This document shows, in pieces, positions 24,001 to 42,203 of a DNA stretch of 64,000 nucleotides; position 1 is the first letter of the stretch, and each line of letters starts with the position of its first letter. The stretch is from Deltaproteobacteria bacterium (GTDB taxonomy: Bacteria > Desulfobacterota > Deferrimicrobia > Deferrimicrobiales > Deferrimicrobiaceae). The translations under genes were made by a program, and so were the position numbers. The notes under the pieces were generated by a model. The model was not told where the DNA came from, did not search any database, and saw only the letters and a list, made by a program, of their open reading frames with translations. The stretch covers positions 10,368-74,367 of the forward strand of contig JBBIVQ010000005.1 in NCBI GenBank assembly GCA_037439645.1, read 5' to 3'.

Positions 24001-24077
24001 GCGCCCTAGGGCGCGTCCGATAGAGCACTTGACTACGAATCAAGTGGCCAGAGGTTCGAATCCTCTAGGGCGCGCCA
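24001..24077 (+). tRNA. tRNA-Arg (anticodon ACG) with encoded CCA; D-arm is non-canonical (possible pseudo or atypical tRNA)
   Basis: Folded by hand: acceptor gcgccct/agggcgc, anticodon stem cttga/tcaag with loop cTACGaa (anticodon ACG), T-arm agagg-ttcgaat-cctct, discriminator G then CCA. The 5' end sits inside a perfect 22-bp palindrome, and there is an extra nucleotide before a weak D-stem. Confidence 0.6.
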
Positions 24078-24218
24078 TTCTCCCGTTTCCGCGGCATTGC
24101 GAGGATTCGAAGCGAGCCCGCCGCCGACCGATGAGGGAGGAAAAGCCGGCATGGATGCCGGCGTCAGGCGGGGGAGGGGAGGCTACGCAGCCGGAGCCAG
24201 GATGGCGGAGGCGTAGTA

Positions 24219-24240
24219 GCCGAATCCTCTAGGCGCGCCA
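24219..24240 (+). repeat. Direct repeat of the tRNA-Arg 3' end (20/21 nt identical to 24056-24077); att-like remnant
   Basis: gccgaatcctctaggcgcgcca matches ttcgaatcctctagggcgcgcca with one G deletion. It lies 143 bp downstream of the tRNA. Confidence 0.6.
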
Positions 24241-24355
24241 CTTTTTCCTTTTATAATCAACATCTTAGGTAGCGCCATTTTGGCGCTCCGCCCTTGGCGA
24301 TCTGTCCGGTTGCGCGGGGGTTGCGGTTTTTGCCGAACTTTTTTCCCGATCCAGA

Positions 24356-25747
24356 TCATCGGTGTGTGCTCTCTCCCTCCGCAAGGACCACCTTTTCCCG
24401 TTTCGCCAGGTCGAGCATCGCGGGGGTGAAGCCGCTGCGGCTGAACAGGACGAACCGTTCGTTTCTCTTGCCGGCGTGCCAATCCACCAGTTCCGATTTC
24501 CTGCGAAGGTCCTGGTATACGTCCGTTCCGACCTTTCTGTTGCTCCACTTGCACTCCCCGAACCAGATGGCGCGGGATTCCTCGTCGAGCGCAACCAGAT
24601 CGATCTCTTCGTTCTTCGCCCACCAGCGGCCGAGGGAGGTGACCGGTACGTTCTCCCGTCTGGCCATGTCAAGGAAGATCTCCCGGGAGATCGATTCGTA
24701 AGCATTGCCTACGTGCTGGTCGAATGTGGCCTCGATTTGCTTGAGGACGTAACCCTCGTTGCCGAGTTCCAATCTTCCCCGGTTCGGGAGGACGTACTTG
24801 AACCAAAAAGCGAAGAAGCGGTCGTGCAGTCGGTACAGGCCGAGTCGGCTCTTGTCGGGAGACTTCTCGGTGACGGGAACCTCCTTCTCGACAAACCCCA
24901 GACTCCTCAGAATGTCGAGGTAACGGGAGAGGTGTGCCTTGTCGAATCCCGTGTCGTTCATGATCTCGGAGAGCTTTCTCTTTCCTTGGGAGATGGCCCG
25001 GAGGATGACATAGTAATCCCGTGGTTCACGGAGTTCCTCACGCAGAAGGAATTCCACCTCGTTGTAGAGGAAGGTGTTCCGGGCAAGGATCAGCTCGGAG
25101 ATGTTTCGGAAGACGCTCTCGTGCGGCCGGACCTGCTCCAGGTAGGCCGGGACGGACCCGAAGGAGGAGTAGATGGCCGCGCGTTTTTTCAGGTCCGCCT
25201 CGGGGAAGAATTCCTTCAAGGCGCTGAATTTGAGCTCCTCGACCTTCAGGGAACCGGTCCGGCGGCCGTAAAGGGGAGCTTTCGAGAACAGGACTTCGCG
25301 CTCCATCATCCCGACGCTTGACCCGAGCAGTATCAGGAACAGCTTTGTGTCCTTCAGGTGCGTGTCGATTCCTTTTTGGAAAATGGAAGAGATTGCCCGG
25401 GCGGCACTCACAAGGTAGGGGAATTCATCGATGACGAGTACCAGGCGGGCCTTCGCGCTCTTTTCCCGGATGTAGCGGAAGAACTGCTCCCAGTCCCGGA
25501 AGCCCCCTTCGATCAGGATCCTGTCCTTGAAATATTCCCCGACGCATCTACCGAGGTTTTTCAGTTGCTCCACCTCGGCGACGGTATCCGCAAGGAAATA
25601 GGCGGCCGGCTTGTTCTGGATGAACTCACGGACGAGCCGGGTTTTGCCCACCCGGCGCCTGCCGTAGAGGGGGATGAACCGGAAAGACGGCTGTTCGAAT
25701 TCCCGCTCCAGGAACCCGAGTTCCTCCTGTCTGTCGACGAACCGCAT
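24356..25747 (-). CDS. ATP-binding protein of the 'archaeal-type ATPase' family (AAA+ P-loop N-terminal domain with a DUF234-like C-terminal domain)
   Basis: Walker A GRRRVGKT and Walker B LVLVIDEFPYL. Start was chosen at the internal MRFVDRQEELGFL. The upstream region is AT-rich with TATAAT-like boxes. Confidence 0.75.
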   Translation of the reverse strand: MRFVDRQEELGFLEREFEQPSFRFIPLYGRRRVGKTRLVREFIQNKPAAYFLADTVAEVEQLKNLGRCVGEYFKDRILIEGGFRDWEQFFRYIREKSAKARLVLVIDEFPYLVSAARAISSIFQKGIDTHLKDTKLFLILLGSSVGMMEREVLFSKAPLYGRRTGSLKVEELKFSALKEFFPEADLKKRAAIYSSFGSVPAYLEQVRPHESVFRNISELILARNTFLYNEVEFLLREELREPRDYYVILRAISQGKRKLSEIMNDTGFDKAHLSRYLDILRSLGFVEKEVPVTEKSPDKSRLGLYRLHDRFFAFWFKYVLPNRGRLELGNEGYVLKQIEATFDQHVGNAYESISREIFLDMARRENVPVTSLGRWWAKNEEIDLVALDEESRAIWFGECKWSNRKVGTDVYQDLRRKSELVDWHAGKRNERFVLFSRSGFTPAMLDLAKREKVVLAEGESTHR

Positions 25748-25918
25748 GGCTTCCTCCGATAAGGTGTCGATATGGATTGCGGTATGTATAATCCTGTTTA
25801 GTCTAAACATGATTATACTGATCCAGCGCGATCCTGCAATGGGTTGTTCGGGGTGAATTGCGCATGGTATGGCATAAGTTCGACAATATCGAACTATTAC
25901 CATGTATTGTCTATTTTG

Positions 25919-26119
25919 TTATTGGGCGGGGATGGCTATTTCTCTATTGGTATCAATGGCTTCCACATTGTGGGCGTCCACGTTCCACCCCGGGTCGTCG
26001 AGGGCGTTGACCGCCTTCCGGTTCGCGCCGGGGATCAGGTGTCCGTAGGTGTCCACGGTGATCTGGATGGAGTGGTGCCCGAGCTGCTCCTTGACGTAGA
26101 CCAGGGATTCTCCGTGGAA
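25919..26119 (-). pseudogene. Tyrosine recombinase/integrase C-terminal fragment (about 65 aa, catalytic-Tyr region only)
   Basis: The minus-strand translation GKTFHGESLVYVKEQLGHHSIQITVDTYGHLIPGANRKAVNALDD ends at the stop at 25919-25921. No N-terminal or core-binding domain is present upstream. Confidence 0.7.
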
Positions 26120-26370
26120 CGTTTTTCCGAAACGTACTCCTGTCGTTTTTGTTCGGCGAGCTGGGCTGCCTCATAATTGGCAACGGGTTTTCCCTTTTCA
26201 GCAAGTTCCTTCGCGATGATATCGGCGTTTACGAACGGCAAACCGCTTGGCGCAATGAACAGTTCATGAAACGTGGTCTTGCCGGCGCCGTTCGGCCCAG
26301 CCAGCACGACCAGAACGGGTTTTTTGTCCGATCCGGATGTCAGGAGTTTGCGCAGGGCCGGGACGATCAT
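26120..26370 (-). pseudogene. Zeta-toxin-like / P-loop kinase N-terminal fragment (about 83 aa), broken at the junction with the integrase fragment
   Basis: MIVPALRKLLTSGSDKKPVLVVLAGPNGAGKTTFHELF... matches a zeta-toxin-like start. After EYVSEKR the frame becomes low-complexity nonsense. The integrase homology starts in another frame at the same point. Confidence 0.55.
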
Positions 26371-26798
26371 CGAGCGGCACGAACCGGAGTTGGGGCGAAC
26401 ACTCCGTCCTTGACCCGTCCGGAAGCCCTGGTTCCGTCAGGCATTATACGGATCACCTTCCCTGGATGGGCCGGGTCGGCTTCGTACACGGGGACGCCGG
26501 GGGCGAGGATCTTTGCTTTCACTGCATCGCGGTCCGGGGTCAGCATGATCTGCGTCACCGTGGAGACGATTTTTGACTCGACACTTTGGGCGCTGACCTG
26601 CTTGAGAAAGAACGGAAGATTTTCCTTGAGAACCTTGACCTCTGCGTTCCCGAGGATTGCTTCCGCGGCCTGTCCGATCTTTACCCAATGCTCGACTTGG
26701 CCCGCCATGGACCGGTCCGATACCTGCGCCTCGCTCCTTACGTCACGGATGACCACCTGATCGGAAAGCTTTACCACCATCTGTTTTCCCGTCTGCAT
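26367..26798 (-). CDS. Hypothetical protein coupled to the zeta-like gene (ATGA overlap); possible antitoxin partner
   Basis: ATG at 26798 follows a GGGGGG Shine-Dalgarno. The stop overlaps the start of the zeta-like fragment. No recognisable DNA-binding motif. Confidence 0.5.
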   Translation of the reverse strand: MQTGKQMVVKLSDQVVIRDVRSEAQVSDRSMAGQVEHWVKIGQAAEAILGNAEVKVLKENLPFFLKQVSAQSVESKIVSTVTQIMLTPDRDAVKAKILAPGVPVYEADPAHPGKVIRIMPDGTRASGRVKDGVFAPTPVRAAR

Positions 26799-27027
26799 GA
26801 CACCCCCCCATGGGCGAGATTCGATTGAGCATCGAAGGTAACTAAATGCTACCATGCATTCTCAGTCGCAGCAAGGGGGGAGGAGCAGAAATGTACCCAG
26901 ACGGCAGGATTGGTCCAAATCGTAAACGATAAAAAGCCTCCTTTTGAACTTGTATTCAGCAGGGATTCCCGGAAGGTGGAGTTATCGGGCGACAGGAACT
27001 GTCGCATCGGTCCCGTATGCTCTTCAC

Positions 27028-27264
27028 ATGAAGACGGGTGACCAAGTGGTTATCACCCTGGTGTGCTTGGGGTGCCGCACGGAGCGGAGCATGCGGATCC
27101 CCCGCGAGCGTGGGATCACGCCCGGCAAGTACCTCTGGGAATGCTTCGCGTGGCAGGAGAAGCGGTACGGGGTATTGGGCAGCGGCTGTAAGAGGGATCC
27201 CGGAGTGGATCGGGCGCGTCCCGGCGGCCACGGGCAACCGGAAAACGGACAGGAGGAAGGATGA
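27028..27264 (+). CDS. Small Cys-containing hypothetical protein (about 78 aa)
   Basis: MKTGDQVVITLVCLGCRTERSMRIPRERGITPGKYLWECFAWQEKRYG. Its stop overlaps the start of the next gene (ATGA). The Shine-Dalgarno is weak. A TTG-start extension to 26944 is possible. Confidence 0.35.
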   Translation: MKTGDQVVITLVCLGCRTERSMRIPRERGITPGKYLWECFAWQEKRYGVLGSGCKRDPGVDRARPGGHGQPENGQEEG

Positions 27265-28205
27265 CCACGGAAAATCGCATGACCACGCTGGCGGACCTTA
27301 CGATCGGCAACCCGAAGACGGTTCTGAACCTGACGGCGGTCCCTCTCTCGGGGAATCCTGCCTCCACGCTCGACTACCTGCTGATCGACGAGGCCCTCGA
27401 GACGAAGAAGGTGATCGTCGAGGAGGTGAGCGAGGGCGGGTCGGTCCCGGAGCTGCGGATGACGAACTTCGCGAACCGGTGCGTCCTGATCGTCGACGGC
27501 ACGGAGCTGGTCGGCGCCAAGCAGAACCGGATCGTCAACGCGTCGTTCCTCATCCCGCAGGAGTCGGTCACGAGGATCCCCGTCTCCTGCGTGGAGCAGG
27601 GGCGATGGGGGTACAAGGGGCGGGAGTTCGGCGCGAGCAAGCACTTCTCGCCGCACAGGATCCGGCGGGACAACGCCGAGTTCCACAAGACCACCCTCAA
27701 GCAGAATCGCGGCTACGCCACCGAGCAGGGGAAGGTCTGGGAGCACGTGGCGAACATGTCCCACGAGATGGCAGCGCCCACGATGACCGGCGCAATGAAC
27801 GACGTCCTCGAGCAGCGGGAGGGCTCCATCGAGGAGTACCGGAAGGGGATCTCCCTGGACGGGGCCGGGACCGGGGCAGCCTTCTTCGTCAACGGGATCT
27901 TCCAGGGGATCGAGCTGTTCGACCGGGAGGCGACGTTCGCGAAGATGTTCCCCAAGCTCCTCTCCGGGGTCGCCGTGGAGGCGATGATGGCGCAGGGGCA
28001 AAAGCTTTCCGCCCGCCGGGCCAAGACCCCGGAAGAAACCATGAAGTACGTAAGTCGGATCCTGGCCGAGGTGTCGAAGTCGCTCTTCGAGAAGTTCGAG
28101 CCGGTGGGGATGGGCGAGGATTGGCGGTACGACGGGAAGCGATCGTTCGGGAAGGCGCTTCACTACGGCGCGGACCTCATTCACTTCTCTGCGTTCGGGA
28201 AATAA
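27261..28205 (+). CDS. Hypothetical protein (314 aa), no family confidently recognised
   Basis: A long ORF with coding-like composition, coupled to the upstream small ORF and followed by a strong terminator hairpin. The N-terminal region reads TVLNLTAVPLSG...LLIDEALETKKVIVEEVSEGGSVPEL. Confidence 0.65.
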   Translation: MTTENRMTTLADLTIGNPKTVLNLTAVPLSGNPASTLDYLLIDEALETKKVIVEEVSEGGSVPELRMTNFANRCVLIVDGTELVGAKQNRIVNASFLIPQESVTRIPVSCVEQGRWGYKGREFGASKHFSPHRIRRDNAEFHKTTLKQNRGYATEQGKVWEHVANMSHEMAAPTMTGAMNDVLEQREGSIEEYRKGISLDGAGTGAAFFVNGIFQGIELFDREATFAKMFPKLLSGVAVEAMMAQGQKLSARRAKTPEETMKYVSRILAEVSKSLFEKFEPVGMGEDWRYDGKRSFGKALHYGADLIHFSAFGK

Positions 28206-28220
28206 TCAGAGGGAAACAGG

Positions 28221-28249
28221 GGAGTGGGCCGTGAAATCGGCCCACTCCC
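28221..28249 (+). terminator. Intrinsic terminator hairpin (10-bp stem)
   Basis: ggagtgggcc-gtgaaatc-ggcccactcc followed by cggTTgaTT. Confidence 0.6.
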
Positions 28250-28319
28250 GGTTGATTCGGAAATAGAATGGGGGTCTACGGCTTCCGGGGGCCGAAGTCT
28301 CGCGCCATGGAGGAACAGG

Positions 28320-29270
28320 ATGGCGAAGGGGATTCCTCGTCCGATGAACAAGCCCGCCATGATGGATTGGGCGCTGCGGCTTCTGCGGTTGCTCAACGAA
28401 AAGAAAGTCCTCACCTCCCGGGTCGTGGCGGAGGCGTTCGACGTCAACATCCGCACCGCGCAGCGATACCTCCTGTACCTCTCCGACCTGCCGTGCGTGG
28501 TGGTCGACGAGGAGAAGCACACCTACACGCTCACCTCGGACTACATCATCACCGACAAGATCCTGAACACCTCCGAGATGGCCCTGGTGTGCGCCCTGAT
28601 CGACTACGCCACCCACATCTTCGGAAAGGAGCACTCGAAGTTCCTGGCGGGGCTGAAAAACAGGATCTTCCGGATGCCGGACGTCTACCAGATCGTCAAG
28701 GACGATGCGATCGACATGGAGAAGGTGGCCGGCGTCCAGTTGGCGCTGGAGCGGCACATCAAGAGCCGGGAGGTGATCTCCTTCCTCTACCGGCGTTCCG
28801 GGAAGCGGTACACGGTGGAGCCGTGCAAGATTCTCTACCACGGCGGGTTCTGGTACGTGGTGGCGATGCACGACGGGATCGTGAAGAAGTTCCTCCTCGA
28901 CGTCATCGAGGGAATCCGCGCCACGGGGCGGGCTTGCGGGGAGATCCCGGAGTCCGTCCGGAAGACGTTGTCGGATGCACAGAGTATCTGGTTCCAGGAC
29001 AAGGCGCCGGACCGGGTGACGGTGGAGTTCGACGCGGAGGTTGCCCACTTCTTCGAACGGAAGAGCATTTTCCCCCGCCAGGAGATCGTACGGAAAGGGA
29101 AGGACGGGAAGATCGTCGTCTCCTTCGACGTCCACAACGACATGGACTTCCGGGAGCACATCGCCCGCTGGATGCCGTATTTCAGGGTACAATCCCCCGA
29201 TTTTTACCGAGAATATTTCTGTAGGGTAACCCGTGAGGCTCTAGACAAGAACGTTTCAAGGGTAAATTGA
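28320..29270 (+). CDS. WYL-domain transcriptional regulator with N-terminal HTH
   Basis: HTH region MMDWALRLLRLLNEKKVLTSRVVAEAFDVNIRTAQRYLLYL and WYL core GGFWYVVAMHDGIVKKFLLDVIEG. A GGAGGA Shine-Dalgarno precedes the ATG at 28320. The upstream part of ORF 28224 was rejected. Confidence 0.8.
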   Translation: MAKGIPRPMNKPAMMDWALRLLRLLNEKKVLTSRVVAEAFDVNIRTAQRYLLYLSDLPCVVVDEEKHTYTLTSDYIITDKILNTSEMALVCALIDYATHIFGKEHSKFLAGLKNRIFRMPDVYQIVKDDAIDMEKVAGVQLALERHIKSREVISFLYRRSGKRYTVEPCKILYHGGFWYVVAMHDGIVKKFLLDVIEGIRATGRACGEIPESVRKTLSDAQSIWFQDKAPDRVTVEFDAEVAHFFERKSIFPRQEIVRKGKDGKIVVSFDVHNDMDFREHIARWMPYFRVQSPDFYREYFCRVTREALDKNVSRVN

Positions 29271-29342
29271 GAATATAGGTTTGTCGCCGAGGGCCCATGA
29301 TCCTCACCATTCATCGCGGATCGAAGCAGATCGGAGGGCATC

Positions 29343-29921
29343 GTGAGGAGAAGCGTCGAGGTGCCGGTGGGATTCCAGCTCCGGATCGAATTGAGGGAGG
29401 TCCTGCCGCCGGTCTGGCGGCGCTTCCTGGTCCCCGGGTCGATCACCCTCCCCGGCCTCCATCGCGTGATACAGGATGTCATGGGGTGGGAAAACAGCCA
29501 TCTCCACCTCTTCCGATTCGGAAAGAAGGAGTACGGGATTCCCGATCCCGAGTACCCCTCGGAGATGCGGAACGAACGGGGCAGGCGCCTGCGGGAATTT
29601 CTCCGCGACGAGGGGGAGACGTTCGGGTACCAGTACGACTTCGGCGACAACTGGGAGCATGACGTCGTTGTCGAGCGGATCGTGACCGGCGCCGAGGTGA
29701 CGGAGGCTACGTGCTTGGAGGGGGAGAGGGCTTGCCCGCCGGAGGATGTCGGAAGTCCCTCCGGGTACATGGAGTATCTGGAAGCCTTGAAGGATCCTTC
29801 CCATCCGGACCACCAGCAGATGGTGGAGTGGAGGGGTCCCTCGTTCGACCCCGAGCGGTTCGACCCGGGAAGGATCAACCGGCGGTTGTCCCTATTGTCC
29901 CGAAGGCGTCGGCGGGCGTAG
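29343..29921 (+). CDS. pRiA4b ORF-3-like (PRiA4_ORF3 / IS1096-TnpR-passenger family) protein
   Basis: FQLRIELREVLPPVWRRFLVPGSITLPGLHRVIQDVMGWENSHLHLF is a family motif. GTG start with a GGAGGG Shine-Dalgarno. Confidence 0.75.
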   Translation: MRRSVEVPVGFQLRIELREVLPPVWRRFLVPGSITLPGLHRVIQDVMGWENSHLHLFRFGKKEYGIPDPEYPSEMRNERGRRLREFLRDEGETFGYQYDFGDNWEHDVVVERIVTGAEVTEATCLEGERACPPEDVGSPSGYMEYLEALKDPSHPDHQQMVEWRGPSFDPERFDPGRINRRLSLLSRRRRRA

Positions 29922-30050
29922 ATGCCGGGCTACATGACAATAACGTCAAGTAAGGGAATTTAGTTAAGTTACCCATTCGATATCCCGCCTACTGTCAACG
30001 AAATGTCAACTAATGTCAAATGGCATTTAGAGAGTCTGAAAAGATATCGG

Positions 30051-30883
30051 TTATTCTTTTTTCGTCGCTGGAGGCAGATCTAACTTCTGAGCAACATCTG
30101 GCACGGCTACGAAATAGTAACGCCTGTTCATTTTTTTCTTGTTTAGATACCCCCTTTCCGCAAGGTCGAGTAAATCTGCGCTTGCCGTCGCCCGAACGAC
30201 GTTGTGAGAGTTTTTGTGGGATTCAATCGTGTACACCGCGTCCGCGTGTTTCACCGCATGCTGGAGAAGGGCAATTTGCCTGTAGTTCAGGTTGGGAACA
30301 TTGCGCAGCATGGCGATCGCTTTCCGCATTTCATCCTGTTTCCGTGCCAGATAATGGTGCAGCTCCTCAAGTGCCAAATGGATGGCCTTCAGGTGGTAAA
30401 CGAGGAAATACGTGACATCCCGGCCGTCAGTCTCCGCGTACAGATAAGCCTTGGCGTATTGCAGGACGGATTTCAGGATGATCCTGGAGATGCTCGAGTA
30501 CTCAAACATCCAGTAGTTGTGGGAAAGCATGTACCAATAGAAGACAGCCCGGGTCGTTCTCCCGTTCCCGTCCACATACGGATGTTCATAAGCAAGCCAG
30601 AAGTGGAGCAGGATGGCGCGGATCACCGGATGGATGAACGGCTCGTTGTCTTTGTCATTGGTCAGGGGACAAAGACGAAAGGGATATTTCGCGGCCGTTC
30701 AAGCCGGGATTGCGCGCGACTACACACCGATGGAGAAGATCTTTACCGTCGTGATCCGGAGGACTTTCCGAAAACGTGCTTGATCATCGGCTTGGTCTCA
30801 CCTTGGAGGAGTTCGATTTCCTCCTTGGAGAGGTGTATTCCTTCGATGGCCGCGGAGGACGTGACCGTCGTCACTACTCGCAT
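30051..30883 (-). pseudogene. Fic/Doc family protein, frameshifted
   Basis: The Fic motif HPYVDGNGRTTR is in one reading frame. The N-terminal Fic motif SSAAIEGIHLSKEEIELL is in a different reading frame. The first part stops at 30743, and the second opens just after a TGA near 30709. Confidence 0.7.
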
Positions 30884-31078
30884 GCAAGACTGACCGAACT
30901 TCTCGAGGAATTCGGTCTCGAACTCCGCATGCCGCATTCCCGGGCGATGGGACAGGGGCTTTTCGAGCTGCGACCGAGAGGGCGGGAAGGAATCGCAAGA
31001 GTTTTCTACTGCACGAGAGTCGGACGGAGGATCGTCATCCTTCACTCGTTCGTGAAGAGAACGGACAAGACGCCGTAG
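30884..31078 (+). pseudogene. Gp49/HigB-like (RelE/ParE superfamily) toxin, N-terminally truncated
   Basis: LTELLEEFGLELRMPHSRAMGQGLFELRPRGREGIARVFYCTRVGRRIVILHSFVKRTDKTP matches the C-terminal two-thirds of this toxin family. Homology starts exactly where the opposite-strand Fic N-terminal fragment ends. The listed ORF start at 30776 would give a non-homologous N-terminus. Confidence 0.6.
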
Positions 31079-31114
31079 GGAACTCGACATCGCCCGGGCT
31101 CGGCAAAAAGAGGT

Positions 31115-31312
31115 ATGCAGGCCATGAAGAGACAAGCACCGACCAGGACGCACCGTCAGATGGTCGCAGCGTGGAAAAAGGATCCCGAATTCCAGGTGGC
31201 GTACGACGAGCTTGATACGGAGTTCGCCCTGCTGCGCCAGTTGCTCGCCGCGAGGATGAGAGCCATTATGTTCTTGCTCTTGGATTACGAATATCGTAAT
31301 GTGCTTGCGTAG
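31115..31312 (+). pseudogene. HigA-like HTH antitoxin, N-terminal fragment truncated by the downstream AbiE insertion
   Basis: RQMVAAWKKDPEFQVAYDELDTEFALLRQLLAARMRA matches the HigA N-terminus. The HTH core is missing. A 17-bp palindrome attacgaatatcgtaat sits at the break. Confidence 0.45.
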
Positions 31313-31996
31313 ATGCAGAGCCTTACTGAGAAAGTACTCAAGCTGGCGCCTCCTGGCGGGTTGTTCGATGAGACGGTCATCCACAACCTGTTTCCGGACA
31401 TCGGTATCGGCGCGCGCGGCCTGTTGGTGCATCGGGCATGTAAAGCGGGTGAAATCCTGCGCCTGAAACCCGGGCTATTCGTGCTCGGCCAGCCGTATCG
31501 GAGGTCCGAGCCGCACCCTTTCGTGGTGGCGGCCATGCTGCACGCCCCGTCCCACATCAGCCTGGAATCCGCCTTGGCGTATCACGGTCTGATCCCCGAG
31601 GCGGTCTACCAGGTGAGCAGCGTCACGGTCGGGCGCAGCAGGGAGTTCTCCACGCCGCTGGGGGTGTTCAACTTCCGCAGGGTGCCGGCGCGCGCGCCGC
31701 GTGCGGGGGTCGAGGCGGTGGCGGTCACGCGCAGCGCCTGGGCGTTTGTCGCCTCGCCCCTGCGCGCCATCGCCGACAAGGTCTATCTCAACAAGGAGAT
31801 CACCTGGAATCGCAACGGTCCCGGTTACCTGACGGAGTCGCTACGCATCGAGGAGGACGATCTGCGGTCGCTCTCCTTCGAAGCGCTGGACGAGATTCTG
31901 GACAGCATCCGCAGCCGGCGCGTGCAGGCATACCTCGCGGGGTTGAAAGGAGCGGTCGGCAATGCTGGAGAGGGTGTTGAGCGCAAGAATCCGTGA
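31313..31996 (+). CDS. abiEi: AbiEi antitoxin (type IV TA / abortive infection system, N-terminal wHTH)
   Basis: The domain pattern matches AbiEi. The gene lies directly upstream of, and overlapping, the AbiEii gene. Confidence 0.8.
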   Translation: MQSLTEKVLKLAPPGGLFDETVIHNLFPDIGIGARGLLVHRACKAGEILRLKPGLFVLGQPYRRSEPHPFVVAAMLHAPSHISLESALAYHGLIPEAVYQVSSVTVGRSREFSTPLGVFNFRRVPARAPRAGVEAVAVTRSAWAFVASPLRAIADKVYLNKEITWNRNGPGYLTESLRIEEDDLRSLSFEALDEILDSIRSRRVQAYLAGLKGAVGNAGEGVERKNP

Positions 31997-32828
31997 CTAC
32001 GCGCCGACGAACAGCGTGGAGCAGGAAAATGTGCTGCAGGAAATCATGCAACACTACGTATTGTCCAGCCTCTCGCGTGCGGGCCTGTTCGCGGAGGCCA
32101 TGTTTCACGGAGGCACTTGCCTGCGCATCGTTTACGGGATGAACCGGTTCTCGGAAGACCTGGATTTCCTTCTCAAACGGCCCGATCCGGATTTCCGCTG
32201 GCAGGGCTACCTGGAGTCTGTTCGAAAGGACTGCGAGGGGGAAGGCATCCCTTTCGAGGTGCAGGACAAGTCCCAGGCCGGAACGGCCGTTCAGAAGGCG
32301 TTCCTGAAGACCGACTCCATCGGCAAGATTCTGGAGTTGGACCTGCCGTTCGAGCGGCATCAAGCCCGGAAGATACGCATCAAGTTGGAGATCGACATCG
32401 ATCCTCCCGCCGGCTCGACGTTTACGACCAGCTACATCACGTTCCCCGTGACGGCGCCGATGACGACGCAGTCCCTCGAATCGGGTTTCGCCCTGAAACT
32501 GCACGCCTTGCTCTGCCGTTCCTACGTCAAAGGACGGGACTGGTTCGACTTCGTGTGGTATGTCGCCCGCAAGACCGCGCCCGATCCGGATCTGCTGAGC
32601 CAGGCATTGCGCCAGCAGGGGCCTTGGGCCGGACAACCGATAGCTGTGACCGGGCAATGGGTGCGGGATAACATGGAGGCGACGATCCGGCGCATTGATT
32701 GGTCCGCGGCTCGAGACGACGTTCAGCGCTTTCTGCCCCTGCGCGAGCAGGAGGGACTTCGCGCGTGGAGTGCCGACTTTTTCCTTCACCACCTCGAGCG
32801 CATGAACGACATTTCCCTCCCGAAATGA
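31962..32828 (+). CDS. abiEii: AbiEii/AbiGii-family nucleotidyltransferase toxin
   Basis: MFHGGTCLRIVYGMNRFSEDLDFL is the nucleotidyltransferase motif. Starts inside the 3' end of abiEi. Confidence 0.85.
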   Translation: MLERVLSARIRDYAPTNSVEQENVLQEIMQHYVLSSLSRAGLFAEAMFHGGTCLRIVYGMNRFSEDLDFLLKRPDPDFRWQGYLESVRKDCEGEGIPFEVQDKSQAGTAVQKAFLKTDSIGKILELDLPFERHQARKIRIKLEIDIDPPAGSTFTTSYITFPVTAPMTTQSLESGFALKLHALLCRSYVKGRDWFDFVWYVARKTAPDPDLLSQALRQQGPWAGQPIAVTGQWVRDNMEATIRRIDWSAARDDVQRFLPLREQEGLRAWSADFFLHHLERMNDISLPK

Positions 32829-33094
32829 TTTCGGCCGGACCCGACAGGAATTCCCTTTTTCTGCTCGTCGCGGCCGGGGGGAGGACGATCCTTCCGGCCG
32901 TCGTCTTTTCGAAGTCCGGTCGCCGAACAGGCTTCCCGAGCCGATCCGTTCACCGCGACCCGGCTCGTCGATTCCCCGGACCATGTAAAGCCCCAGGCGC
33001 AACGCATCCGACGAACGCTTCGGAAGAAACTTCCCCGAGCCCTTCCCGCTTGGCGCCGGTACCGGATGCGTGACTGGGGGAAGTGAGTGGAACG

Positions 33095-33300
33095 ATGAGG
33101 AGAACGAATTTCGACCGGTATCTGGAAGAGCAACTGCGGGATCCCTCGTTTGCCGCCCGTTTCGAGCGCGCCGGCGAGGCGTGGGATGTGGCGATGCATA
33201 TCGCCGCTCTTCGGCGGCGGGCCGGGCTCTCACAGAAAGACCTCGCGAAGCTTCTCAAGACCTCCCAGCAGCAGATCAGCCGCTTGGAGTCCCCCGGCGC
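33095..33300 (+). pseudogene. HTH-XRE (HigA-like) antitoxin fragment; HTH is present but the C-terminus is replaced
   Basis: FDRYLEEQLRDPSFAARFERAGEAWDVAMHIAALRRRAGLSQKDLAKLLKTSQQQISRLE. Beyond this the ORF continues only as the reverse strand of the next gene. The full 239-aa ORF 33083..33802 was rejected. Confidence 0.45.
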
Positions 33301-33337
33301 TTCGGGGAATGGAATACCCGTCAGCGGTCACATGCCT

Positions 33338-33705
33338 TCAACGCTTCGCGGCCTGCAGGGCGACCATCCCCTTGATCGCCTCGATGGCCTCTTCCGTGGT
33401 CTTGTTCCGGATGTCGAGGGAGGCCAGGCGCGACCGGTCGAACCCGGCTGCGTCGAGCGCGTCCCGGAGCATCTTCGCCTGCATCTGCGGGTCGCACGCG
33501 GCGATGTACAGAGTGTCCGTATCCCTCCCCGCGAGCAGGACCTTGAGGAATTCCTCCCCGTCCCCTACGCAGAGCTGCGGGTGCAGGCACACGTAGTCGA
33601 AGATCTTCTCCCGGCGGACGTCGGCGAGCACGTTGAAGATGTCCATCTTCTTGAAGCTCGGGCAGGTTCCCTGGCAGTTGCAGAGAATGAATCCTTTTTC
33701 CCCAT
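33338..33705 (-). pseudogene. MvhD/FlpD-like (hydrogenase delta-subunit family) small Fe-S protein; the ATG with a perfect AAGGAG SD is in one reading frame and the conserved Cys-rich body is in another, switching at an A5 run
   Basis: ATG at 33705 with AAGGAG at a 6-nt spacing gives MGKK, then the A5 run at 33695-33699. The conserved protein GFILCNCQGTCPSF-KKMDIFNVLADV...LYIAACDPQ...RSRLASLDIRNKTTEE aligns by eye to MvhD (ILCNWCAYAGADLAG ... GCHIGDCHY ... RLRLEWVSASE). Confidence 0.5.
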
Positions 33706-33875
33706 GGCGAACTCCTTTCCATTAATCGTTACATCTACATATATAGATATTATGCCCGGGAAAGCGGAAAAGATCAACGATAATTTCGACACGGATTATT
33801 AGCGACGAGCGCACAAGGTTAGACGGAGGATCGGGAGGAATAAGCGTTTGAGAGGATTGGAGGAGTATCGCCCTG

Positions 33876-34346
33876 TTATATTTCCTTCCCGTGGCCGAAG
33901 AGGACCTTCAGGCGGCGGAGGAGTTCGTCGCGAACGGATCGGAACGCATCGAGGCGGGTTTCCTCCGTGCCGGTGATGGCCGCCGGGTCGGGAAGCGCCC
34001 AGTGGGCACGGTGCGCCTTCCCGAGGAATACGGGGCAGACCTCCTCGGCGCAGAGGGTGATCACGGCGTCGACGGACCCGGCGTCGATGGAATCCAGCCC
34101 TTTGGATCGGTGATCGGAGATATCGAAGCCGATCTCCTTGAGGACCCGGATCGCCTCCGGGCGGACGGAGGAGGGGGCAGACCCGGCGGAACTGATGTGT
34201 AAGCCTTCCGGAGCGAGAAAACGTGCGATCCCTTCGGCCATCTGACTGCGGGCTGAGTTCGCGACGCAAAGGAACAAAATGTGCCTCGGGCGCTTCGCCC
34301 GCAGGGCCTCCGCCTCGGCCCTCCACTCTTCCTGTCGAGCACTCAC
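33876..34346 (-). CDS. arsC: Arsenate reductase ArsC (LMW-PTP/thioredoxin-coupled type)
   Basis: HILFLCVANSARSQMAEG is the CX5R P-loop. GTG start at 34346 overlaps the arsR stop (GTGA). The long N-terminal extension of ORF 33876..34760 was rejected. Confidence 0.8.
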   Translation of the reverse strand: MSARQEEWRAEAEALRAKRPRHILFLCVANSARSQMAEGIARFLAPEGLHISSAGSAPSSVRPEAIRVLKEIGFDISDHRSKGLDSIDAGSVDAVITLCAEEVCPVFLGKAHRAHWALPDPAAITGTEETRLDAFRSVRDELLRRLKVLFGHGKEI

Positions 34347-39371: not shown

Positions 39372-41891
39372 CTATCGGCGGCCCGCCGCCTTCGCATCCG
39401 CCACGCCCGAGATAAAATCCCCGAGCGCCGAGAGCAGGTTCGTGACCACTTTCCCTTCGGGAAGTGGAATCTTGAGGCACGTCCTCCCGTCCTTTTCATC
39501 GCGGTCGACCAACGATTTCAGCAGGCCGTCGAGCGGGTTCCCGCCGGACTGGGTGGGTGCCAGCAGGGCGTGCCCGAGGGCCGCGAAGAATCGACGGCCC
39601 GCGGCGGCGACGAGATCGCCCTGTGCCTGACGGCCGTCCCCTCCTTCCTCGCCGTCGGCGGCCGCGACTCCGCCCCCTTCGATGCACGGGTCTTCTTCCG
39701 ACGAAGCGTCTTCCGCCGGCGCCGCCGCCGGGTCCGTCTCCTGCGGCTGCTCCCCGGGCGGGATGTTCTTTTCGAGACCCGACGTGATCGTCTCCACGGA
39801 CTGCATGAATCGTTTCAGCATGGAGCCGCCGAGCAGGACGACGTCTTCGCCCTCCCGGTCCAGCGCCCCCGCGAAGAGAGATCTCTTGAATTTGAGGAGG
39901 TCGAGGATCCGCTCTTCGATGGAGGATTCCGTGACGAAGTTGACGATGCGGACCGGGCGGCGCTGTCCGAGCCGGTGCACCCTGCCGACCCGCTGTTCGA
40001 GGACCGCGGGATTCCACGGGATGTCCATGTTGATCACGACCGAACCGCTCTGAAGGTTCAGCCCGACGCCGCCGGCGTCGGTGGACAGGAAGACCCTGCA
40101 CGACGGGTCGTTCCTGAAGCGCGACGTCAAATCCTTTCTCCTGGGCGACGGCACCCCGCCGTGAAGGAAGGCGCAACCGATGCCGTTGCGCTCGAGCACC
40201 CCTTCCACGAGCTCCGCCATCCGGATCCACTGGGTGAAGATGACGACCTTTTCCGTTCCTTCGAGTACGATTTCCTTCAACAGGATATCGAGCTCGTCGA
40301 TCTTCGGCCCGTGCACCGTTTTTTTGTCCACCAGGTAGGTGTTGTCCGCCGCCATCCGCATGTAGTTCAGGGCGATCCGGAGCCGTCGCTGGTCGGCTTC
40401 GCCAAGAAACCGGTACCGGCGCCACTTCGCCGCCAGCCGGGCGACGATTCCCAGGTGCTCGTCGTGGATCTCCCGCTGTTCCTTCGTCATGGGAACGAAG
40501 AAGTTCTTGTCGATCCGTTCCGGAAGCTGGCGAAGGACCTCCTCCTTCTTCCTCCGGATCATGATCGGTGCGAGGGATTTCCGGATGGACTGGAGGTCCT
40601 TGTATCCGGTCACCTTGCCGTCTCCGTCGACCACCCGGTGGTTGTCGACAAACCGGAACAGGGGTCCCAGGCGCCACCGGTCGATGAATTCAACGATCGA
40701 GTGAAGCTCCTCGATCCGGTTCTCCAGGGGCGTCCCGGTCAGCACGATGGCGAAGGGGGACTCGAGCTGTTTCACCGATTTCGCGGTCCGCGTCTTCCAG
40801 TTCTTGATCCTCTGGGCCTCGTCGAGAATGATGAGATCGGGGGACCATCGCCGGATCAGGTCCAGGTCCCGGTGGACCAGCTCGTAGTTGATCAGTTTGA
40901 AGAAGCTCTCCTGTCCGTACATCTCTTCGCGCCGGTGATGGAGTCCCTCGATCACCTGCGCCGGCCGTCGGGTAAACGCCTCGATTTCCGAGCGCCACTG
41001 GTGTTTCAGGGAGGTCGGGGAAACGATGAGCACTTTCCGGACGTGGAACAGGTCCGCCATCAGCTCGGCGGCGGCCAAGGCCTGGACGGTCTTTCCCAGG
41101 CCCATATCGTCCCCGATGAGGCACCGCCCGGCATGTACCGCGAACAAGGCGCCTTCGCGTTGATATGGATACAGGTCCGTCTTCAGAAGATTCCTGAACG
41201 CCGGACTGTCGATCCCTTCCTTCAACCGGAAGCGGACGACCCCGCGCCGGTGCTCGGCGTCCTCGAGTTCGGCGGCATATTCGAGGACGTCGTCGTAGCA
41301 ACGCACCTCGTGGCCGTTGCCTCCGTGAATCGCGTGCAGGAACCGGCCGAGATCGGGCATCCTCTCGTCCTTGAGCATCCCGGCTCCGTCGAAGAACTCC
41401 CCGGCAAGCGCAAGAAGCCGCGCCGGCGCGCCCGTTCCGGGCCGGAACGACACCTGTCGCCGAAGGCCGTAACGCAGGTAGACTTCGGAACAGGAAGGAA
41501 CGTATCCCTCCCGGAACGCCTTCCCGGCCCCTTTGCGCTTCATCAACCGGGAAAGTGTGAATTCGATGTGCTTGCACGTCCCCAGGCCCGAGACGGCGTA
41601 GTCCGGGCAGGAGCAGTAGTTGTCCAGGGGATCTTTTCCACGAACGGCGATCCTGTACGTCTTCCCCGATTCCGGGTTATGGAGCCGGAATTCCGAGAAG
41701 ACGGGATGGTCGCCCACGTTTTCGAGCCGATACCTCTGTTCGGCGCCGTACTGTTTCCGCAGAAGCCTCTGCCACTCCTCGAGGCCGAGGTGGTCCGGCT
41801 TGTGCGTCCTCGATATCTTCGGGCCGACGCGAACCTTTTCCTGCGAAAGAGAAGTTTTCTCGGAATCCGACTTCGTCTGCCCGGTGTTCAT
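39372..41891 (-). CDS. SNF2-family helicase with N-terminal SWIM zinc finger
   Basis: SWIM motif CSCPDYAVSGLGTCKHIEF, helicase motif I DDMGLGKTVQALAAA, DEAQRIKN, and motif VI QRVGRVHRLGQ. Start was chosen at MNTGQTK (41891) inside ORF 39372..42182. Confidence 0.85.
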   Translation of the reverse strand: MNTGQTKSDSEKTSLSQEKVRVGPKISRTHKPDHLGLEEWQRLLRKQYGAEQRYRLENVGDHPVFSEFRLHNPESGKTYRIAVRGKDPLDNYCSCPDYAVSGLGTCKHIEFTLSRLMKRKGAGKAFREGYVPSCSEVYLRYGLRRQVSFRPGTGAPARLLALAGEFFDGAGMLKDERMPDLGRFLHAIHGGNGHEVRCYDDVLEYAAELEDAEHRRGVVRFRLKEGIDSPAFRNLLKTDLYPYQREGALFAVHAGRCLIGDDMGLGKTVQALAAAELMADLFHVRKVLIVSPTSLKHQWRSEIEAFTRRPAQVIEGLHHRREEMYGQESFFKLINYELVHRDLDLIRRWSPDLIILDEAQRIKNWKTRTAKSVKQLESPFAIVLTGTPLENRIEELHSIVEFIDRWRLGPLFRFVDNHRVVDGDGKVTGYKDLQSIRKSLAPIMIRRKKEEVLRQLPERIDKNFFVPMTKEQREIHDEHLGIVARLAAKWRRYRFLGEADQRRLRIALNYMRMAADNTYLVDKKTVHGPKIDELDILLKEIVLEGTEKVVIFTQWIRMAELVEGVLERNGIGCAFLHGGVPSPRRKDLTSRFRNDPSCRVFLSTDAGGVGLNLQSGSVVINMDIPWNPAVLEQRVGRVHRLGQRRPVRIVNFVTESSIEERILDLLKFKRSLFAGALDREGEDVVLLGGSMLKRFMQSVETITSGLEKNIPPGEQPQETDPAAAPAEDASSEEDPCIEGGGVAAADGEEGGDGRQAQGDLVAAAGRRFFAALGHALLAPTQSGGNPLDGLLKSLVDRDEKDGRTCLKIPLPEGKVVTNLLSALGDFISGVADAKAAGRR

Positions 41892-42203
41892 CGCAGCGAT
41901 CCTCTTGGTTTTTTTTGCCCGCCCGCTGGGTTGAGCTGTCCCGCCCGGGGTCGGCTGGAAGAGTTCCGGAAAGCGAACCAGGAGAATCTCGCCATCGACG
42001 CCGAGGGGAACCTGACGTACCTGGCCGCCGGCGAATGGCGGTTGCAGTTCGTCATGGAGAAGTGGCCGCAGATCGCTTTTCTGAAGACCCGCGAACACGA
42101 CCGAATCCCGTTTCCCCTGTTTCCCTTCCTCTCCGGTTTCTTGATTGTTCCCGTGATTATGAAGGAGTGTACCTCGTAACACGCAGGCGCCGAAAGGAGA
42201 GGA

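Follow-up and report, generated by a model that had tools for sequence, protein, structure and literature searches.

The nearest published relative of the locus considered here is the ARPP family, which Iyer et al. (2022, Viruses 14:1977, section 3.8, PMC9503650) described in silico together with a two-gene neighbourhood that contains a WYL regulator. The ARPP fold is given as a beta-rich core into which a barrel is inserted, with no relation to characterised domains, and an absolutely conserved cysteine and an absolutely conserved glutamine are noted by Iyer et al. A literature search under DUF6569 and PF20208 found nothing, and the one paper that mentions the domain is computational (Iyer et al. 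2022).

On the regulatory side the relevant models are DriD and PafBC. The published DriD site, ATACGAC(N7)GTCGTAT, overlaps the -35 position, and its distance from the -10 element is fixed (PMC10853764, PMC13004042). The PafBC motif, tGTCgg(N10)tA(N3)T, goes with a canonical -10 element and lacks a -35 element (PMC8635444). The GTC triplet is read by a pair of arginines, namely R37/R41 in DriD and R46/R50 in PafB (for PafBC, PMC8635444).

The DNA analysed here is a stretch of 64,000 nt (the window), in which two overlapping genes of the + strand are real and translationally coupled. On balance we lean towards reading their locus as a small mobile cassette in a tRNA-Arg island, composed of a WYL-activator-type promoter, a lineage-specific putative zinc-ribbon ORF, ARPP-1, a hairpin and a DriD/PafBC-type regulator, with ARPP as the effector (Table 1). 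The conserved unit appears to be the ARPP gene together with the DriD/PafBC-like sensor-regulator and the promoter, and by analogy it is probably DNA damage or infection that turns a unit of this composition on.

Table 1. Features of the cassette and its surroundings, in window coordinates.
Feature	Position	Strand	Remarks
tRNA-Arg(ACG)	24001..24077	+	ARAGORN; left edge of lower-G+C island; context only
Palindrome GCGACAG-GAA-CTGTCGC, putative WYL operator	26989..27005	+	overlaps would-be -35 position
PafBC-type promoter core tGTCgc-N10-TATGCT	27000..27021	+	GTC 27001-27003; -10 hexamer 27016-27021
Small putative zinc-ribbon gene, 78 aa from ATG	27028..27264	+	no Pfam model; family CxxC-N22-CxxC
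ARPP-1 / DUF6569, 314 aa	27261..28205	+	Pfam PF20208, E 4e-86; presumed effector enzyme
12-bp hairpin	28220..28249	+	perfect G+C-rich stem, 6-nt loop
wHTH-WYL-WCX regulator, 316 aa	28320..29270	+	DriD/PafBC architectural type; Pfam WYL + WCX
PRiA4_ORF3 gene	29343..29921	+	Pfam E 6e-64; 3' of regulator

The larger protein of the pair, which an earlier note on this DNA had regarded as unassignable, is matched over its full length by ARPP-1 PF20208 (NCBI DUF6569). The match scores 289.5 bits, where the cut-off is 27, and residues 13-312 correspond to positions 2-297 of the 297 in the profile. The same note had put the system forward as a candidate undescribed one, a description that is not supported, as ARPP and the two-gene WYL neighbourhood are already found in section 3.8 of Iyer et al. 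2022 (PMC9503650). In an alignment of 30 sequences reaching down to 35% identity C110 (in PVSCVEQGRW), Q88 (in GAKQNR) and Q156 are invariant. Homologues number more than 7,200 by word index, with 11,748 representatives at 50% identity; a tblastn search with ARPP gave no match in phage and one in plasmids (Candidatus Fervidibacter, 28% identity). The AF2 model of the window protein (pLDDT 90.6, pTM 0.90) had no match among solved and viral folds.

The profile and PADLOC searches proposed in the earlier note returned the ARPP-1 Pfam match for the 314-aa protein; NCBIfam, PHROGs and PADLOC had no match for it or for the 78-aa protein, and in PADLOC-DB 2.0 neither gave anything at E <= 1. Since ARPP is absent from PADLOC, a defence role for it is only contextual. 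As to its chemistry, the fusions found (ARPP with VWA and PARG; a DSP-phosphatase with ARPP) point to ADP-ribose, and ARG, NADAR and phosphatase genes adjoin ARPP in other loci; the annotated genes around the window cassette within the island include no ARG, Macro or NADAR gene.

The smaller gene is also real, since its dN/dS is 0.30 in its own frame vs about 1.0 in the other two. A longer start giving 106 aa (in-frame TTG 26944) was rejected: it would begin 5' of the promoter, in a stretch where the frame is not open in most relatives. The product, described in the earlier note as Cys-rich with CxxC, has one CxxC (C13, C16) together with C39; the fourth cysteine of the family is a tryptophan in the window copy (CFAW vs CFAC/CFEC). 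In the family CxxC-N22-CxxC is at least 90% conserved; the family comprises 51 clusters, none of them below 40% identity. The AF2 model consists of three strands, one helix and a disordered tail, and its pLDDT exceeds 90 across residues 10-40.

The earlier note had treated the two ORFs as a defining pair joined by an ATGA overlap. The overlap itself agrees with the coordinates of both genes (shared ATGA, 27261-27264) and is kept in most full-length copies, and the ARPP gene, like the small ORF, is under purifying selection. Together with the toxin-antitoxin systems among the neighbouring modules these features would suit a self-contained toxin-antitoxin-like or enzyme-inhibitor pair with the WYL gene as a mere neighbour, a proposal that is nevertheless very improbable in view of how the small ORF is distributed. 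Every copy seen stands beside an ARPP, and most of these ARPPs share at least 85% identity with that of the window; one divergent copy, containing an internal stop as read, stands beside an ARPP of 44% identity in locus L114. Several relatives at 73-95% identity (L087, L093, L096, L098, L099, L001 and others) lack the small ORF while ARPP is intact behind the same promoter, and it occurs in 0 of 80 diverse ARPP genome loci (32-73% identity). Its 51 clusters stand against about 11,700 ARPP representatives, and in the window the small protein has lost a zinc ligand, yet ARPP is intact. The two-gene arrangement is conserved within its narrow clade, so that the absence which the earlier note had named as refuting holds for distant homologues only; the two ORFs as the defining pair are not supported. 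Limited to close ARPP relatives and missing from several of them, the zinc-ribbon gene is best read as a recent accessory of one clade and not as a required, conserved partner. To judge from the loci compared, the recurrent partners of ARPP are the WYL regulator and the DriD/PafBC-type promoter, not the small ORF.

The promoter region (26989-27021) consists of GCGACAGGAACTGTCGC, a spacer of 10 nt and TATGCT. Its palindrome has the core of a DriD box, CGAC-N7-GTCG, and 15 of 21 positions, counted by hand, match the crystallised DriD site ATACGACAGTTACTGTCGTAT; the palindrome is the sole strong copy in the window. No -35 element was found at the promoter, the best hexamer, compared by hand, agreeing with TTGACA at 2 of 6 positions. 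Palindrome, N10 and TAnnnT are kept in 27 of the 31 near-relative loci, whether the small ORF is present or not, and the GTC-N12-TAnnnT spacing is kept both in relatives and in distant WYL-linked loci. The ATG of the small ORF (27028) lies 6 nt past the -10 hexamer, so the zinc-ribbon/ARPP mRNA is probably leaderless.

Boxes similar to that of the window precede ARPP genes in other phyla. The pattern GAC-N7-G[TA]C-N12-TAnnnT was found upstream of 7 of 77 ARPP genes, and among 543 other genes of these loci upstream of 3 (Fisher p = 3e-5); in an Actinomycetota ARPP locus (L043) TGTCAGTG-N8-TACAAT stands upstream. In the distant WYL-linked loci the exact CGAC-N7-GTCG core was not present upstream of ARPP; the boxes there are relaxed or degenerate, [CT]GAC-N7-G[TA]C[AG], and three of these loci (L035, L036, L057) have no recognisable box. 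The comparison of these boxes rests on fixed regular expressions and not on a position-weight matrix, as the iterated matrix, with which 31 of 76 upstream regions scored higher than the 99th percentile of controls, was over-fitted, picked up ordinary TTGACA -35 boxes and was rejected.

The palindrome lies in a divergent intergenic region adjoining a ParD-like gene, and antitoxins commonly bind palindromes. That it serves as the operator of another factor, for instance of this divergent ParD-like antitoxin, or as a structural element, is nonetheless improbable, as the box travels with ARPP whatever the upstream gene, be it ParD/Zeta, ParE, an integrase or a phosphatase-like ORF (its CX5R motif taken from the alignment). 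Moreover, in five loci (L102, L124, L126-L128) an identical second box with the same spacing, followed by an ATG 7 nt later, precedes a 160-aa gene situated just beyond the regulator; such a recurrence of the box before a second gene adjoining the WYL gene is, as far as the nucleotide sequence can tell, the behaviour of a transcription-factor regulon. The DriD core of the box and the retention of the GTC-reading arginines by the regulator likewise speak against another factor.

The assignment of the adjoining gene to a WYL regulator, already made in the earlier note, was borne out by Pfam WYL (35.2 bits) and WCX (36.9 bits) matches, both above cut-off, with a weak HTH_11. In PADLOC the protein matches generic WYL signalling models only. 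A phmmer search with the window protein alone against PDB sequences gave nothing significant, DriD and PafBC included; the DriD/PafBC type therefore rests on profiles and architecture. A profile built from the 14 other WYL regulators linked to ARPP aligns with the protein over its full length (residues 20-308, 72.9 bits), and the profile of all 15, including that of the window, matches PafBC (1.6e-45) and DriD (5e-41) over the full length. In the recognition helix (NIRTAQRY) R45 and R49 align with R37/R41 of DriD and R46/R50 of PafB. The R49 column is invariant among the 15 regulators, and the first arginine is present in 12 of 15, being missing in exactly the three with box-less loci. The regulator gene of the window has no box of its own.

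In 80 species-level loci the WYL+WCX gene is the commonest immediate neighbour of ARPP (8 upstream, 2 downstream), in varied orientations and phyla; of the near relatives whose downstream sequence extends for 4 kb or more, about 30% have no WYL gene within 6 kb.

Another possibility, which we consider unlikely, is that the WYL protein is a BrxR/CapW-like repressor acting on the promoter of a de-repressible anti-phage or abortive-infection cassette with ARPP as the toxic effector. Repression, as by BrxR and CapW, is the typical role of WYL regulators that adjoin defence islands (Picton et al. 2022, as cited in PMC9186387), and the position of the operator, overlapping the promoter core, is equally compatible with repression. 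What points the other way is that the promoter lacks a -35 element and has the spacing of the activator-dependent PafBC/DriD promoters, that the 15-sequence profile matches BrxR/CapW in the WYL domain only (1e-8 to 4e-6) and PafBC/DriD at full length, and that PADLOC has no model for ARPP or the small ORF. The surroundings described below, with an island rich in toxin-antitoxin and Abi modules and cargo that varies past the regulator among relatives as in defence islands, would suit such a repressor, as would the frameshifted or truncated copies of ARPP in the relatives L124, L106 and L115-L117.

The cassette sits in a mobile, toxin-antitoxin-rich island which begins at the tRNA-Arg gene and has a G+C of 0.57-0.61 at about 24-34 kb vs about 0.65 in the flanks, and in this respect the setting proposed in the earlier note is confirmed. 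By Pfam, a Zeta-toxin fragment and the ParD-like gene stand upstream of the cassette, and WYL+WCX, PRiA4_ORF3, a Fic fragment, Gp49 and AbiEii downstream. The modules named earlier (Zeta fragment, WYL, PRiA4_ORF3, Fic, Gp49, AbiE) were recovered, but the supposed integrase fragment has no Pfam match; a Phage_integrase fragment occupies the same place in the syntenic locus L129. PRiA4_ORF3 is found among relatives in L129 only, other relatives carrying different genes at that place, and it is variable cargo outside the conserved core. A blastn search of the cassette against plasmids gave no match.

The pair had been said to end in the cleanest intrinsic terminator of the window. The hairpin after ARPP is indeed strong (-32.7 kcal/mol, z = -4.5, with 0 of 200 shuffles folding as well) and conserved, every pair of its stem being kept in 13 of 13 relatives, but its 3' tail, GGTTGATTCGG (also given as GGUUGAUU), has no U-run, and 28220-28249 is not among the calls of the consensus terminator scan. 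The hairpin is no textbook case of an intrinsic terminator; it is probably a terminator without a U-tract or an attenuator, and it marks the junction past which the cargo differs between relatives. Rfam over 26-30 kb gave nothing except a sub-threshold miRNA-model match of the hairpin.

If the activator cassette preferred here is correct, its operation may be outlined as follows. The regulator would be made constitutively; single-stranded DNA arising from DNA damage or from an invading replicon would bind its WYL domain and free the HTH domains, as in DriD and PafBC. A regulator dimer would then bind GCGACAGGAACTGTCGC at the -35 position of a promoter whose geometry, as read from the DNA, is -10-only, and would recruit RNA polymerase to the TATGCT promoter. 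Transcription would start at about the A of ATG 27028 and yield a leaderless bicistronic mRNA with ATGA coupling, the geometry of which is again directly legible. In the last and weakest step, based on family contexts and fusions, ARPP-1 would be the effector, probably an enzyme with a cysteine-centred active site whose substrates are ADP-ribose or ribose adducts, plausibly borne by DNA.

A further-reaching and quite tentative proposal is that ARPP, as an enzyme of a new fold that works through its invariant cysteine, is the effector arm of a widespread ssDNA-triggered response to ADP-ribosyl or ribose DNA lesions, activated by DriD/PafBC-like WYL regulators in many phyla, with the clade-specific zinc-ribbon protein as a modulator. 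Such an arm might serve the repair of DarT-type or phage-inflicted modification, or attack invading DNA.

The bacterial family ARPP-1/DUF6569 is very large, with about 11,700 clusters at 50% identity, and no structural relative of it was found; the one idea published for it, in section 3.8 of Iyer et al. 2022, connects it by computation with ADP-ribose conflict systems. The present locus puts ARPP behind a DriD/PafBC-class promoter and beside a regulator of the same class, and induction by damage, ssDNA or phage thereby becomes a testable idea. The ssDNA-sensing WYL activators studied so far are those of Caulobacter and mycobacteria; the loci compared here suggest that activators of this kind control portable effector cassettes in many phyla. 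WYL-controlled ARPP cassettes would tie DNA-damage signalling to ADP-ribose chemistry.

Compared with the neighbourhood in section 3.8 of Iyer et al. 2022, the window has the same family (PF20208), the conserved cysteine and glutamine, the adjoining WYL regulator and a conflict-type island, and the ADP-ribose link made there recurs here through the PARG and phosphatase fusions. That section gives no operator, promoter or inducer, whereas the window adds a DriD/PafBC-type promoter, a probably leaderless putative zinc-ribbon ORF between promoter and ARPP, a conserved hairpin and variable cargo. A functional analogy of ARPP to SRAP / HMCES-YedK, based on the conserved cysteine and on sugar- and DNA-linked contexts, is also proposed by Iyer et al.; the cysteine of SRAP / HMCES-YedK is N-terminal while that of ARPP is internal (C110), ARPP has no similarity to any solved fold, and the analogy is speculative.

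In the window, as with BrxR/CapW, a WYL regulator borders variable, defence-like cargo within a mobile island. In contrast, BrxR/CapW are repressors encoded upstream of their own systems, only their WYL domain is similar to the window type, and the cassette holds no BREX or CBASS genes.

The likeness to PafBC lies in the tGTCgc-N10-TATGCT sequence, which fits the actinobacterial motif, and in the missing -35 element; PafBC, however, is a heterodimer that uses one non-palindromic half-site and needs RNA polymerase to bind, while the window has a full palindrome. DriD of Caulobacter crescentus is an ssDNA-activated WYL activator with the same wHTH-WYL-WCX architecture (about 320 aa), the CGAC-N7-GTCG palindrome over the -35 position, an arginine pair at i and i+4 that reads bases, and the same GTC-N12-xAnnnT spacing to the -10 element, as counted from the published oligonucleotides. 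The two differ in that identity is too low for a pairwise match and in the flanks of the box (GG..CA in the window, ATA..TAT in DriD). By their descriptions the DriD targets (didA, bapE, recJ, dnaG, CCNA_03891) include no ARPP, CCNA_03891 being a protein of unknown function and CCNA_01149, a divergent neighbour of driD in Caulobacter, a TonB-dependent transporter. With a full palindrome and a single regulator gene, the window is therefore closer to DriD than to PafBC.

The 314-aa protein, which the earlier note had left without a family, was identified as ARPP-1 (Pfam PF20208; here ARPP), the relatives of which are named DUF6569 by NCBI. The family gave more than 7,200 matches in a word-indexed search and, clustered at 50% identity, is represented by 11,748 sequences. 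An alignment of 30 members reaching down to 35% identity shows GAKQNR and PVSCVEQGRW (containing C110) as invariant motifs, together with the invariant residues E55, E82, R135, Q156, R289, and H308. The gene is essentially chromosomal, being present on 1 of 72,556 plasmids and in none of 50,697 phage genomes.

A literature search for "DUF6569" returned no paper, and the sole paper found to mention the ARPP domain was that of Iyer, Burroughs, Anantharaman, and Aravind 2022 (PMC9503650). This study places ARPP in systems built around ADP-ribosylglycohydrolase (ARG), describes three gene pairs in which the neighbour of ARPP encodes HIRAN, a WYL transcription factor, or an aminosugar deacetylase, and proposes that ARPP acts on ribose moieties, perhaps via a cysteine crosslink. 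The association of ARPP with a WYL transcription factor was thus already published there, from computation only, and the system is not undescribed as had been suggested; what the window adds is an operator with its promoter, an implied inducibility, a putative zinc-ribbon leader gene, and the cargo junction. The ADP-ribose link was recovered independently of Iyer et al. through fusions among family representatives P0217, P0275, P0281, and P0282 (ARPP-1+VWA+microbial PARG, ARPP-1+VWA, and DSP-PTPase (DSP-phosphatase)+ARPP-1) and through neighbours that include ARG, NADAR, and phosphatase genes. We infer that ARPP is an enzyme acting on ADP-ribose or ribose adducts. One representative (P0003), 89% identical to the ARPP of the window, carries the NCBI label Candidatus Methanoperedens, which may reflect a binning error or transfer, because the window and all other close relatives look bacterial.

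Features of the cassette and its surroundings (positions in the window unless a comparison locus is named)
Feature	Position	Strand or remark
tRNA-Arg(ACG)	24001-24077	start of island
Zeta-toxin fragment and ParD-like gene	5' of cassette	minus strand
Palindrome GCGACAGGAACTGTCGC	26989-27005	
-10 element TATGCT	27016-27021	
Small ORF, 78 aa from ATG	27028-27264	+
ARPP ORF, 314 aa	27261-28205	+
Hairpin, perfect 12-bp stem	28220-28249	-32.7 kcal/mol
WYL+WCX regulator	28320-29270	3' of ARPP
PRiA4_ORF3	29343-29921	3' of regulator
Fic fragment, Gp49, AbiEii	farther downstream of cassette	
Second GCGACAGGAACTGTCGC box region	L126:5483-5540; L124:8113-8170	

The cassette lies in a region (~24–34 kb) of 57–61% G+C against ~65% in the flanks, which begins at a tRNA-Arg gene and is therefore regarded as an integrated island; the flanking DNA is ordinary bacterial chromosome. 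The gene context described in the earlier note was recovered on both sides of the cassette. Besides these genes the island (24001-34000) contains an ATPase_2/DUF234 gene and a 227-aa ORF without a Pfam match that precedes AbiEii, and several of its genes are truncated. Synteny with the window extends from the integrase fragment through Fic in L129 (GCA_037445515.1), while in another relative, L124, the cassette sits after an integrase in the same element as a primase-polymerase and a terminase. Outside the island a 936-aa SNF2-family helicase (39372-42182, minus strand) scores below threshold against the models for DISARM DrmD, Zorya ZorD, and DpdE and may be another defence-related gene.

The small ORF is a real gene: in 17 copies its dN/dS is 0.30 in its own frame and ~1.0 in the other two, and ARPP of the same loci gives 0.28. 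Its consensus MKxEDxVPITLRCFxCLAEREILIPRERGxAPGKYLWECFECQ has the form CxxC-N22-CxxC, with the fourth cysteine replaced by Trp in the window, and the structure model consists of three strands and a helix (pLDDT >90 at residues 10–40) followed by a disordered tail. No Pfam model was matched, and in 5.8 billion sequences the family forms just 51 clusters, none of them less than 40% identical. In every locus found via the small protein, and in every tblastn match in the fetched loci, the ORF stands immediately 5' of ARPP, and most full-length copies share the ATGA overlap noted earlier in the window. It is nearly restricted to ARPPs that share 85% or more identity with that of the window, the exception being L114, where a divergent copy, read with an internal stop, adjoins a 44% ARPP relative; it was not found in several close relatives with intact ARPP (L087, L093, L096, L098, L099, and L001) or in any of 80 species-level genome loci. 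This narrow distribution indicates a recent insertion and not the partner of the family. Thus, the two genes proposed earlier as a conflict pair are both real and overlapping, but the pairing does not hold for most ARPP loci, where the small ORF is missing, and for the same reason a toxin-antitoxin reading of the two genes is disfavoured.

The hairpin behind ARPP has z = -4.5, and none of 200 shuffles folds equally well. The earlier note read it as an intrinsic terminator; the stem is perfect, but the tail GGTTGATT has no U-run and a consensus terminator scan did not call it. All 13 relatives compared keep the hairpin with each of its pairs intact, and the sequence 3' of it varies. Nothing separates it from the WYL gene in the window, L129, L102, L126-L128, and L124; in L082 a DUF2779 nuclease-like gene intervenes, with the same downstream junction in L083, L085, and L108. 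Elsewhere other genes lie between; in L081 PDDEXK and UvrD-helicase genes are inserted between ARPP and a PDDEXK-WYL fusion regulator. The latter (L081:10615-12504) joins an N-terminal nuclease domain to a regulator ~92% identical to the WYL protein of the window. Just past the hairpin ~25 nt (..GATTCGGAAATAGAAT / ..GGAAATACAAT, resembling a -10 element) are common to the window (28250-28320), L082, L083, L085, L086, L088, L104, and L108, after which the cargo diverges into the WYL gene, the DUF2779 gene, or genes without assignment. The hairpin behaves like a site at which cargo is exchanged.

Upstream regions of 27 of 31 close-relative loci keep a block of GCGACAGGAACTGTCGC, 10 nt, and TAnnnT, independently of small-ORF presence and of the upstream gene. 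No second strong copy of the palindrome occurs in the 64-kb window, and the best -35 candidate matches TTGACA by hand at only 2 of 6 positions. The small-ORF ATG lies 6 nt 3' of the -10 element with no Shine-Dalgarno sequence, and therefore the transcript is probably leaderless; relatives lacking the small ORF have the same promoter, a ~30-nt leader with AGGAG, and then ARPP. Frameshifted or truncated ARPP copies behind an intact box promoter (L124:5351-6278, L106, L107/L108, L115-L117) point to frequent effector decay. Just beyond the WYL gene of L102, L124, and L126-L128 the identical box, N10, TAnnnT, 7 nt, and ATG precede a gene for a 160-aa protein without family (MDPMENFPRLHEFLTKFL...), which has no homologue in the window and probably belongs to the same regulon; a local regulon behaves in this way, with one operator before each of two genes on either side of the regulator.

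Among the 80 genome loci (ARPP at 32–73% identity; Planctomycetota, Acidobacteriota, Desulfobacterota, Firmicutes, Actinomycetota, Gammaproteobacteria, and others) the commonest immediate neighbour is WYL+WCX+HTH_11 (8 upstream and 2 downstream, co-directional and divergent), followed by MerR (6), XRE with Peptidase_M78 (3), ARG (2), and DSP-phosphatase (2). The linkage of ARPP to WYL regulators is recurrent, also where the small ORF is missing. TGAC-N7-GTCA, 11 nt, and TAnnnT precede ARPP in WYL-linked L009, L017, and L069, with close variants in L007, L012, L070, and L072. The fixed pattern GAC-N7-G[TA]C-N12-TAnnnT occurs in 7/77 ARPP upstream regions versus 3/543 for the remaining genes in those loci (Fisher p = 3e-5), and the box alone in 16/77 versus 27/543 (p = 1e-5). 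Several of the matches lie in loci with no adjoining WYL gene, in keeping with a controlling regulator whose gene lies at another place in the genome; in an Actinomycetota MAG (L043:387-408), upstream of an ARPP gene likewise without a WYL neighbour, TGTCAGTGAGACCGGCTACAAT reads as TGTCAGTG-N8-TACAAT and fits the actinobacterial PafBC motif, so that ARPP may belong to PafBC regulons. A different palindrome, GTCAAC-N4-GTTGAC, containing TTGACA, was seen upstream of ARPP in L010, L033, L062, L066, L067, and L076 (Gemmatimonadota/Longimicrobiales-type and Gammaproteobacteria) and may mark a second regulatory class, MerR-family genes being the second commonest neighbour.

The window promoter resembles those of two known WYL activators. 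The DriD operator of Caulobacter, with published consensus ATACGAC(N7)GTCGTAT, shares its core with the palindrome, and the crystallised site ATACGACAGTTACTGTCGTAT matches at 15 of 21 positions by hand count (PMC10853764); sites bound by DriD extend over the -35 position and keep a constant distance to the -10 (PMC10853764, PMC13004042), and the GTC-N12-xAnnnT spacing of CCNA_03891 and didA, hand-counted from published oligonucleotides, equals that of the window. PafBC acts at hybrid promoters with -10 and -26 elements and no -35, with the consensus tGTCgg(N10)tA(N3)T, which the 3' half-palindrome and -10 of the window, tGTCgc-N10-TATGCT, fit (PMC8635444).

The 316-aa regulator has WYL and WCX domains above Pfam cut-offs, and a single-sequence search found no PDB relative. 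It aligns full-length (72.9 bits) to a profile of 14 WYL regulators adjoining ARPP in other phyla. In its recognition helix NIRTAQRY, R45 and R49 align with the GTC-reading residues R37/R41 of DriD and R46/R50 of PafB. The first arginine is missing in 3 of 15 ARPP-linked regulators (L035, L036, and L057), the same three loci that lack a recognisable box, a coincidence that is suggestive only. The regulator would be expected to bind the box. In the main rival reading the parts are the same, but the WYL protein would repress an inducible defence system in the manner of BrxR or CapW; however, the 15-sequence profile including the window regulator matches BrxR (1e-8) and CapW (4e-6) in the WYL domain only, whereas its matches to PafBC (1.6e-45) and DriD (5e-41) run end to end. 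The regulator presumably activates instead of repressing, and by analogy with DriD and PafBC its signal would be ssDNA.
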